Assembly: GCA_002372175.1 (NCBI GenBank)
Contig: DFIS01000080.1
Location: forward strand, 1-39,664
Reading direction: 5' to 3'
Length of the DNA stretch: 39,664 nt
Source: Solobacterium sp. UBA3691
GTDB taxonomy: Bacteria; Bacillota_I; Bacilli_A; Erysipelotrichales; Erysipelotrichaceae
Numbering within the stretch: the stretch's first letter is position 1; every line of letters begins with the position of its first letter. A model generated the notes under the pieces. The model made no database searches. It had not been told where the DNA came from and saw nothing but the letters and a program-made list of their open reading frames with translations. Positions 15,810-15,979 of the stretch are shown piece by piece. The position numbers and the translations under genes were made by a program.

Positions 15810-15979
15810 AAACGTGTACTTTTTTGCTTGGTAATATGTCTAAATCAAATTTTAACATATACCGCTCTTTATGCGCATAACAATAAGGTACTTAGAAGCT
15901 AATACTCACTGTTCAATAAGTACACGTTTGCAACACCCCCTCCTTTCCCGGGATTCTGTGTGCTCATGTGTACTTTTTC
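15810..15979. promoter_or_regulatory. Cluster of three AAGTACAC-core repeats (two inverted pairs) bracketing a promoter-like element; candidate recombinase site / invertible switch
   Basis: Copy A is aaacgtgtactttttt (15810-15825). Copy B is aataagtacacgttt (15915-15929) and is inverted relative to A, with a 12-nt perfect core and about 15/16 overall. Copy C is tgtgtacttttt (15968-15979), in the same orientation as A and sharing 11 nt with it. Between A and B the minus strand reads TGTTAAAAT (an extended -10; + coordinates 15849-15857), pointing towards the TIR gene start at 15738. Confidence 0.45.

Follow-up and report, generated by a model that had tools for sequence, protein, structure and literature searches.

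A probable serine-recombinase inverton with an invertible promoter upstream of a TIR/SPFH gene island in Solobacterium sp. UBA3691 and its relatives

Introduction

Can a short DNA segment between a small serine recombinase gene and a gene for a TIR-domain protein in Solobacterium sp. UBA3691 (Erysipelotrichaceae) invert and thereby turn a promoter towards or away from the neighbouring gene island, and does it still do so in this strain? The question is raised by a stretch of 39,664 nt (GenBank assembly GCA_002372175.1, contig DFIS01000080.1, positions 1 to 39,664 of the forward strand), which is here called the window and to which all coordinates refer unless another sequence is named. An earlier note on this DNA had proposed that a pair of inverted repeats brackets a promoter-like element beside the recombinase gene and forms a phase-variable switch. 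Much of the heterogeneity of gut bacteria stems from invertible promoters, and almost all that is known of their mechanism comes, to our knowledge, from Bacteroides and enterobacteria.

Our analysis indicates that the locus is very probably a serine-recombinase inverton, i.e. a switch with an invertible promoter, which the window has captured in its ON orientation. The segment occurs in nature in either orientation, and the architecture of its sites as well as the motif and the position of its promoter are conserved. The enzyme that carries out the inversion would be the adjacent recombinase. The coordinates of all features are collected in table 1.

Results

Inverted repeats beside the recombinase gene

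A 247-bp spacer (15739-15985) separates the ATG of the TIR gene from the serine recombinase gene (start at 16567, minus strand). A repeat search of the window found two inverted arms of 15 nt here (15810-15824 and 15915-15929), which are 93% complementary, lie 90 nt apart and share a perfect 12-nt core, AAACGTGTACTT, that occurs exactly twice in the whole window; inverted copies with such a core had already been described in the earlier note. Arms of this length and with this core bound the segment in the way in which inverted repeats bound an inverton in the PhaseFinder sense. When the spacer is shuffled, a perfect 12-mer inverted repeat arises in 0.19% of cases, in agreement with the previous estimate of well under 1%. 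For the entire 39.7-kb window, however, one or more such 12-mer repeats with a gap of 10-200 nt occur in about 30% of shuffles, so that the repeat statistics alone are only suggestive and not decisive. This latter figure is what could be cited for a mere chance match, a reading that is hardly conceivable given that core, position and orientation are conserved at 58 of 80 homologous loci and that inversion has been observed. It is thus comparison with related sequences that confirms the repeats as genuine sites.

Both orientations occur in related natural sequences

The most direct evidence comes from close relatives. L001, L097 and L098 are independent metagenome contigs with flanks that are 90-97% identical to the window, and L002 is a fourth contig. 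Bases 1-2551 of L001 are collinear with window positions 18464-15915 at 96.6% identity, and its bases 2537-2656 correspond to window positions 15810-15929 in the opposite orientation (96.7%), with only three differences from the window in the flipped 96 nt. The segment is likewise reverse-complemented in L097 and L098, which stem from other samples and have different recombinase alleles; L002, which is collinear throughout, and a further assembly, L004, are unflipped like the window. Comparison of the inner with the outer flanks narrows the exchange point in the flipped alleles to GTGTACTT, inside the recombinase-proximal site. The closest species representative, L005 (metagenome-assembled genome RUG14114, 87-93% nucleotide identity), also has a 106-bp switch, and the promoter faces the recombinase gene in L001, L097, L098 and L005 and the TIR gene in the window. 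The same flanks thus enclose the segment in both orientations, across different strains and samples. We consider misassembly of the flipped contigs unlikely, because the 12-15-nt arms are shorter than the k-mers that assemblers normally use.

Opposite orientations are also found within a single genome, i.e. at two paralogous Flavonifractor loci (L012 and L013) with near-identical segments. A 22-mer from inside the segment had 0 matches in the JGI metagenome scan, which added no orientation data. As a separate observation, L005 is without the citrate-lyase gene block that the window has at 17650-21031 (dehydrogenase gene to 21032). The central proposal of the earlier note, an invertible promoter-bearing segment beside a serine recombinase gene, is borne out by the two orientations in close relatives and by the conserved layout described below.

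Crossover sites and their spacing across the recombinase family

The recombinase has more than 8000 homologues among the matches listed. Species-representative genomes, searched with the repaired protein, provided a sample of 80 loci, 62-82% identical and belonging to Clostridia, Negativicutes and relatives. A GTGTAC...GTACAC pair around a segment of 106-241 bp is present at all members of a set of 45 loci, which consists of 42 of these 80 together with the window, L001 and L002. In most of them the pair starts ~30-50 nt after the recombinase gene, and most of the 45 segments bear a conserved TGn-extended -10 promoter. A position weight matrix (PWM) from 84 sites describes a 28-bp dyad, TTnCARAAAnGT-GT-ACnTTTYTGnAA, with an asymmetric central GT that is close to invariant in the training set, a near-invariance that partly reflects the fact that the core GTGTA(C/G) was part of the search pattern; the search also partly dictates that all proximal sites read GTGTAC and all distal ones GTACAC. 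At scores of 15 or more, this matrix finds 154 matches in 702 kb, 146 of them within 300 nt downstream of the recombinase gene, at 58 of the 80 loci. The order of recombinase, site, promoter, site and cargo gene is kept at most homologous loci. Judged by this consensus, the functional sites are more than the 12-15-nt arms, namely ~28-bp dyads centred on the GT of GTGTAC. At consensus level they have the make-up of crossover sites, i.e. a dyad of ~26-30 bp with a 2-bp centre that is asymmetric and thus confers polarity, the position of cleavage being predicted.

Centre-to-centre spacings of the paired sites fall at 106, 113-115, 125-128, 134-138, 145-148, 155, 229 and 241 bp. They are best fitted by a period of 10.35-10.45 bp with a phase of ~0; at 10.5 bp, R = 0.76 and p = 0.006 (eight length classes), a p-value that is indicative only, the loci being related to one another. 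Spacing in whole turns would let both sites face the same side of the DNA within a synaptic loop of very small size. The reservation that the segment might be too short for synapsis loses its weight, as short and helically phased segments (106-148 bp) are normal in the family.

The distal site of the window encloses the left arm (15810-15824), and its PWM score of 18.0 lies above the 99.9th percentile of the null and is the sole score >10 in the 39.7-kb window. The proximal site (15909-15936) includes the right arm (15915-15929) and scores 3.2, at about the 97th percentile of core-forced random sites. A third copy of the repeat, as reported earlier, does exist in direct orientation to the left arm, its coordinates having been off by one (tgtgtacttttt lies at 15967-15978). 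Of its halves, one (ACTTTTTCTGTG) is a good half-site, although shifted by 1 nt from the register, and the other is poor; the score of -4.0 corresponds to about the 89th percentile. Kept in L001, L002, L097 and L098 and absent from L005, the sole close relative whose recombinase frame is not extended, it is a lineage-specific weak half-site and not a needed part of the switch. A third site as a feature of the whole family was considered and rejected on the strength of its absence from L005, of the single pair at typical loci and of the rarity of PWM matches outside the 300-nt zone (8 of 154). The copy lies 154 bp from the distal site, and its use would delete the proximal site together with the promoter. 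A hexamer AAGTAC upstream of the recombinase gene, previously listed as a weaker match, is present at 16592-16597, where there is no site-like PWM match, and is judged to be noise.

The arrangement of the sites bears directly on another explanation, namely that the repeats are binding sites at which no inversion takes place, i.e. a res-like resolution or accessory site belonging to the resolvase of a transposon or plasmid, or operators for a transcription factor. That the recombinase is nearer to Sin/Bin3 and gamma-delta resolvases than to Gin, and that a direct third copy exists, would suit a resolvase. Resolvases, however, use direct res repeats with accessory sites and produce deletions, whereas here two simple inverted sites with an asymmetric centre lead to inversion; a direct copy exists only as the weak half-site, which scores below chance-level thresholds and which L005 lacks, and typical loci have nothing but the site pair. 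Moreover, the switch is flanked by chromosomal housekeeping genes, and no transposase domain was detected among ten open reading frames (ORFs) scanned in the window. With both orientations of the segment observed, the inverted alleles contradict operators or res-like subsites, which the earlier note had kept as an alternative, and we regard this explanation as very improbable.

Some family loci depart from the layout of an invertible segment directly behind the recombinase gene. The site pairs of L035 (+1417/+1586 from the recombinase end) and L063 (-3051/-2936) lie far from the recombinase gene. At the P0099 locus (L085-L091), where an ORF6N-domain gene lies downstream, the assemblies show no site or, in L086, a solo site; they add no further evidence of flipping. 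Such loci with far, solo or missing sites may be displaced, decayed or differently used modules.

The promoter within the segment

The minus-strand extended -10 element, TGTTAAAAT, to which the earlier note had drawn attention, is present at 15849-15857 and coincides with the conserved promoter of the family. Transcription is predicted to start at ~15842, which would give a ~104-nt leader that crosses the distal site before reaching the ATG at 15738. When the family segments are oriented by their best promoter match, they mostly show T(T/G)GAAA or TTGACT, a 17-nt spacer and TGnTATAAT, with the -10 located 32-40 nt before the exit site in most segments; in the window, TGT-TAAAAT sits 32 nt before the distal site. 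As a group, real segments have higher promoter scores than shuffled ones (mean 15.8 versus 13.7 ± 1.0). A generic sigma-70 promoter scan of the window did not call the switch promoter because its -35 element is weak (3/6 matches), and we have retained it because the extended -10 is conserved family-wide. At the level of sequence, an outward promoter faces a co-directional gene, as expected of an invertible promoter.

Promoter orientation is clear at 36 loci, with the promoter pointing toward the recombinase gene at 27 and toward the cargo at 9. An insulating terminator or hairpin in the ~70 nt upstream of the -35 element was considered and rejected, as the mean folding z-score is -0.1 and z < -2 is reached in only 12% of segments. 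A perfect 12-bp palindrome, TTATGCGCATAA, at 15868-15879 overlaps the -35 element of the switch promoter, and a related sequence, TTTCTGCGCAT, is found at 16608-16618 just upstream of the recombinase start; these could represent a shared operator or be due to chance.

A recombinase gene with a single-nucleotide deletion

The encoded protein is a member of the Resolvase family (PF00239, E = 5e-18) with a C-terminal helix-turn-helix (HTH) domain, and its catalytic residues Y5-G6-Y7-x-R9-V10-S11, D68-R69 and R72 are invariant in the alignment with its homologues. Among proteins of solved structure, Sin/Bin3 (E = 6e-28) and gamma-delta resolvase are its closest relatives, with Gin farther away (E = 9e-14); with 38.1 bits against a cut-off of 272 for the NCBIfam Mpi model NF009949, it is not a member of the Mpi family.

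In the window, the two halves of this protein are held by two overlapping minus-strand ORFs and not by an intact single reading frame. The frameshift suspected in the earlier note is due to a 1-nt deletion after codon 106 (AGG GGA AAA followed by ATC, 16258-16247): AAA GAT CTG has become AAA ATC TG at 16252-16247, and the joined halves align gap-free to homologues that read RRGKDLVGTF. The deletion is shared by L004, with 10.3 kb of sequence identical to the window, and by L003 (NCBI GCA_001684375.1, 99.94% identical). Because L003 is an independent assembly, the deletion is, on this comparison, a feature of the lineage and not an assembly slip in one data set. Switching in this strain is most likely slowed or locked ON because of this deletion, with two conceivable exceptions, i.e. 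a paralogue acting in trans or -1 ribosomal slippage at G_GGA_AAA. Of the idea that expression of the island is phase-variable, the part that concerns the history of the lineage therefore stands, whereas the present behaviour of this strain is doubtful, its recombinase being frameshifted here and in a near-identical assembly.

Continued phase variation in this strain by one of these two routes is a possibility to which we give the smaller share of our belief. Several family copies with near-identical sites can share a genome, as L012 and L013 do in Flavonifractor, but within the 39.7 kb that make up our view of this genome no paralogue is demonstrable. Slippage is suggested by the position of the deletion directly after a -1 slippery heptamer, G_GGA_AAA (16256-16250), of the canonical form X_XXY_YYZ; a -1 slip would read AAT CTG GTG..., giving a frame open to the end and restoring the full-length protein. 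Yet this heptamer consists of the conserved Arg-Gly-Lys codons, is expected in any homologue that uses them and is thus probably coincidental. In addition, a stimulatory structure was not identified, the matches to the recombinase are in a single unbroken frame at all 80 homologous loci, and the slip product would have Asn in place of the nearly invariant Asp107. A slowed or ON-locked switch remains our preferred description of the present state.

At its 3' end, the gene also runs into the switch. Typical homologues have 200-202 aa and end before the proximal site, as do the recombinases of L005 and P0003, which terminate in ...KAKRYK and a normal stop. This stop has been lost in the window lineage, and in the window and its closest relatives the frame is extended through the proximal site (right arm), in the window as far as 15906. 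The C-terminal tails differ with orientation, also among the closest database proteins: P0001 and the window end in ...KRVLIEQ, and P0002, P0121 and P0122 in ...KRVLFCLVIFLN, the tail that a flip of the segment between the arms would give to the window protein. This makes the switch, in effect, partly intragenic in this lineage. One could conclude from the existence of both tail variants in real proteins, and from a majority orientation in which the promoter faces the recombinase, that inversion mainly regulates the recombinase itself—by a swap of its C-terminal tail or by turning antisense transcription on and off—and not a cargo promoter. We consider this distinctly unlikely, since typical recombinases end before the proximal site, which makes the ORF extension a lineage-specific accident, and since a cargo gene on the same strand lies within ~30-130 nt of the distal site at most loci.

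Cargo genes and the TIR/SPFH island

The ATG of the first TIR gene lies 81 nt past the distal GTACAC core (78 nt past the site centre). From there, genes of the same strand follow up to a terminator-like hairpin at the end of the island, and together they would form the transcription unit under control of the switch (table 1); the only other minus-strand terminator-like match before 6326 is weak and lies inside the second TIR gene (8626-8600). The island is embedded in a region of low GC content (6220-16000; 38-42% versus ~51%). None of its five proteins matches a PADLOC model at E <= 1e-3, NCBIfam gave no matches for them, and their TIR_2 match is a Pfam-level domain only, so that a role in defence is not supported by these libraries.

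At most loci of the family, a cargo gene on the same strand as the recombinase gene starts ~30-130 nt beyond the distal site. A Pfam scan of 36 downstream cargo proteins found SPFH/Band_7_1 (4), zinc ribbons (4-7) and SLH domains (3), BspA-type leucine-rich repeats, Listeria-Bacteroides repeats and VWA, as well as glycosyl and sugar transferases, Eco57I, ResIII and C5 DNA methylase. Surface proteins, glycosyltransferases, restriction-modification functions and SPFH proteins are typical cargo of phase variation. Two TnpB genes among the 36 are probably secondary insertions. Even close relatives that keep both the switch and the upstream 2-hydroxyacid dehydrogenase neighbour differ in cargo: the gene after the switch encodes an SPFH and not a TIR protein in L001 (2675-3406), L002 (1417-1607) and L097 (894-1235), and a GT2 glycosyltransferase in L005 (5787-6725). 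Cargo is thus interchangeable and has been exchanged. A swap exactly at the crossover point was considered and rejected, as the outer half-site is still similar in the relatives (ACnTTTTnAG) and homology ends just beyond it. As a side observation, Ruminococcus turbiniformis CLA-AA-H200 (L014, 5620-7523) has a family switch that is followed, after ~1 kb, by an erm(B) gene of the same direction (NCBIfam 565 bits versus a cut-off of 525); in this assembly the promoter is oriented toward the recombinase.

Upstream of the recombinase gene, the hairpin that follows the dehydrogenase stop codon is likely a terminator which separates the housekeeping operon from the recombinase gene and the switch. 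It leaves only ~60 nt for a promoter of the recombinase gene itself. Rfam and tRNA scans of the window gave no matches.

Table 1. Positions of the switch, its neighbouring genes and associated elements in the 39,664-nt window.
Feature	Position	Strand	Description
Invertible segment	15818-15921		106 bp from site centre to site centre; ON orientation, promoter toward TIR gene
Recombinase-proximal crossover site (predicted)	15909-15936	minus	~28-bp dyad; reads ..TTGCAAAC-GT-GT-AC-TTATTGAACAG.., central GT 15923-15922
Cargo-proximal (distal) crossover site (predicted)	15803-15830	plus	GTGTAC, central GT 15816-15817; inverted relative to proximal site
Switch promoter (predicted)	15849-15877	minus	-35 TGCGCA 15877-15872, 17-nt spacer, TGT-TAAAAT (TG 15857-15856, -10 15854-15849)
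Third copy, GTGTACTTTTT	15968-15978, within 15961-15985	plus	direct orientation to distal site; inside extended recombinase frame
Small serine recombinase gene, frameshifted	15906-16567	minus	N-terminal catalytic domain in one frame; rest of E-helix and HTH in -1 frame
First cargo gene	13153-15738	minus	zinc-ribbon/TPR/TIR/DUF6273 protein, 861 aa; ORF and Pfam
SPFH gene	10970-12820	minus	zinc-ribbon N-terminus; ORF and domain scan
Two genes without family match	10278-10967 and 9266-10207	minus	
Second TIR paralogue	6554-9214	minus	zinc-ribbon/TPR/TIR/DUF6273, 39% identical to first
Terminator-like hairpin	6326-6298	minus	island end
Probable transcription unit under the switch	6298-15738	minus	all genes on same strand
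Hairpin with T-run	16630-16672	minus	14-nt arms, 93% complementary; directly after 2-hydroxyacid dehydrogenase stop codon; repeat search and sequence

Discussion

How could such a small switch operate? We propose that each site would be occupied by a recombinase dimer and that the dimers would then form a synapse over a DNA loop of very small size, a proposal that is based on the spacing of the sites in integral helical turns. Cleavage at the central GT—the asymmetry of which would give each site its polarity—and subsequent strand exchange would then flip the segment between the sites. In the ON state, which is that of the window, a single outward extended -10 promoter would drive transcription across the distal site and into the TIR/SPFH island. 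When OFF, the same promoter would read into the 3' end of the recombinase gene, i.e. antisense to it, and the resulting antisense or convergent interference might stabilize the OFF state, in keeping with the 27:9 bias in promoter orientation. The start of transcription, the small-loop synapse and the present rate of switching are elements of this scheme that we infer.

Several of our observations weigh against this interpretation. The two orientations are known from different strains or samples and not from within one clonal population, and all 5 assemblies of another family locus (P0091) agree in orientation. The assignment of inversion to the adjacent recombinase is based on linkage only, and in the window this recombinase is frameshifted. 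Furthermore, 22 of the 80 homologous loci are without a recognizable site, i.e. this recombinase family is not exclusively tied to switches. Finally, with its score of 3.2 the proximal site of the window is a weak match to the family consensus, and the switch promoter combines a poor -35 element with a failure to be called by the generic scan.

In functional terms, the switch is nearest to promoter invertons of the Mpi type and to Hin, and in the sequence of its enzyme it is nearer to Sin-type resolvases. Mpi invertons switch surface or glycan loci ON and OFF, and the Mpi/capsular invertons of Bacteroides fragilis share with our system a small serine recombinase, which is encoded outside of the segment, and short promoter-only segments between inverted repeats. 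Mpi, however, is a single master invertase that serves many unlinked loci with a repeat core of ARACGTWCGT and segments of ~170-230 bp, whereas here each switch has an adjacent recombinase, which fails the Mpi model, as well as 28-bp dyads with a GTGTAC core and segments of 106-148 bp. The Hin/hix, Gin/gix, Cin and Pin systems also combine a serine recombinase with inverted sites that are ~26-bp dyads with an asymmetric central dinucleotide, and Hin, too, flips a promoter. Hin-type systems invert 1-4 kb and depend on an enhancer bound by Fis, and the hin gene lies within the segment that it inverts. In contrast, the segments described here span ~10-14 helical turns with little room for an enhancer, the recombinase gene lies outside, and the enzyme is nearer in sequence to Sin/Bin3 than to Gin. 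Resolvases of the Sin/Bin3/beta type in Firmicutes have the same organization of catalytic domain, E-helix and C-terminal HTH and are the closest relatives in both sequence and structure. Sin acts over short distances together with an architectural DNA-bending protein, and by analogy it seems a plausible model for the small loop proposed here.

Short invertible regulatory elements have also been described in another clostridial organism, Clostridioides difficile, where RecV switches lie upstream of surface and motility operons (cwpV, flgB, cmrRST; PMC5386303, PMC7446863). RecV, however, is a tyrosine recombinase that is unlinked to most of its targets, and at least the flg switch acts post-initiation through Rho (PMC7446863), whereas here a serine recombinase is linked to the switch and the promoter lies inside the segment. 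With the catalogued gut invertons (PhaseFinder, PhaseFinderDC, DeepInverton), the locus shares flanking inverted repeats and the occurrence of both orientations. Such surveys place Clostridia-like Firmicutes_A invertons near surface genes and invertases (PMC11892184, PMC11602134). We found no description of the present recombinase family, of a GTGTAC-core site or of helical phasing in the searched text of these two surveys, in PMC12823448 or in the literature at the level of titles and abstracts; the switches may stand unnamed in catalogue tables. Thus, the window switch belongs to a known kind, the serine-recombinase inverton, and the combination of a linked Sin-like enzyme, 28-bp GTGTAC sites and phased segments of 10-14 turns would be distinct if it is confirmed and proves undescribed.

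As a tentative generalization, which as a whole may well not hold, the family could represent a large set of self-contained phase-variation modules of Clostridia and their relatives. Each module would consist of a Sin-like enzyme and a promoter cassette of 10-14 helical turns, with a small phased loop that does without a Hin-type enhancer, with antisense transcription in the OFF state that makes switching orientation-dependent and biased to OFF, and with interchangeable cargo, which in the present case would be a bet-hedged TIR system. For Clostridia, the comparison of family loci provides a set of rules, comprising a site consensus, an asymmetric GT centre, spacing in whole turns and a characteristic promoter position, and these rules could be used for annotating switches without reads and for building small orthogonal DNA switches. 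For the biology of this organism, a 9-kb low-GC island with two TIR-domain proteins and an SPFH protein apparently stands behind an ON/OFF switch, which suggests that the island is expensive to express or of use only at times. This particular strain appears to have fixed the island in the ON state through loss of its recombinase.

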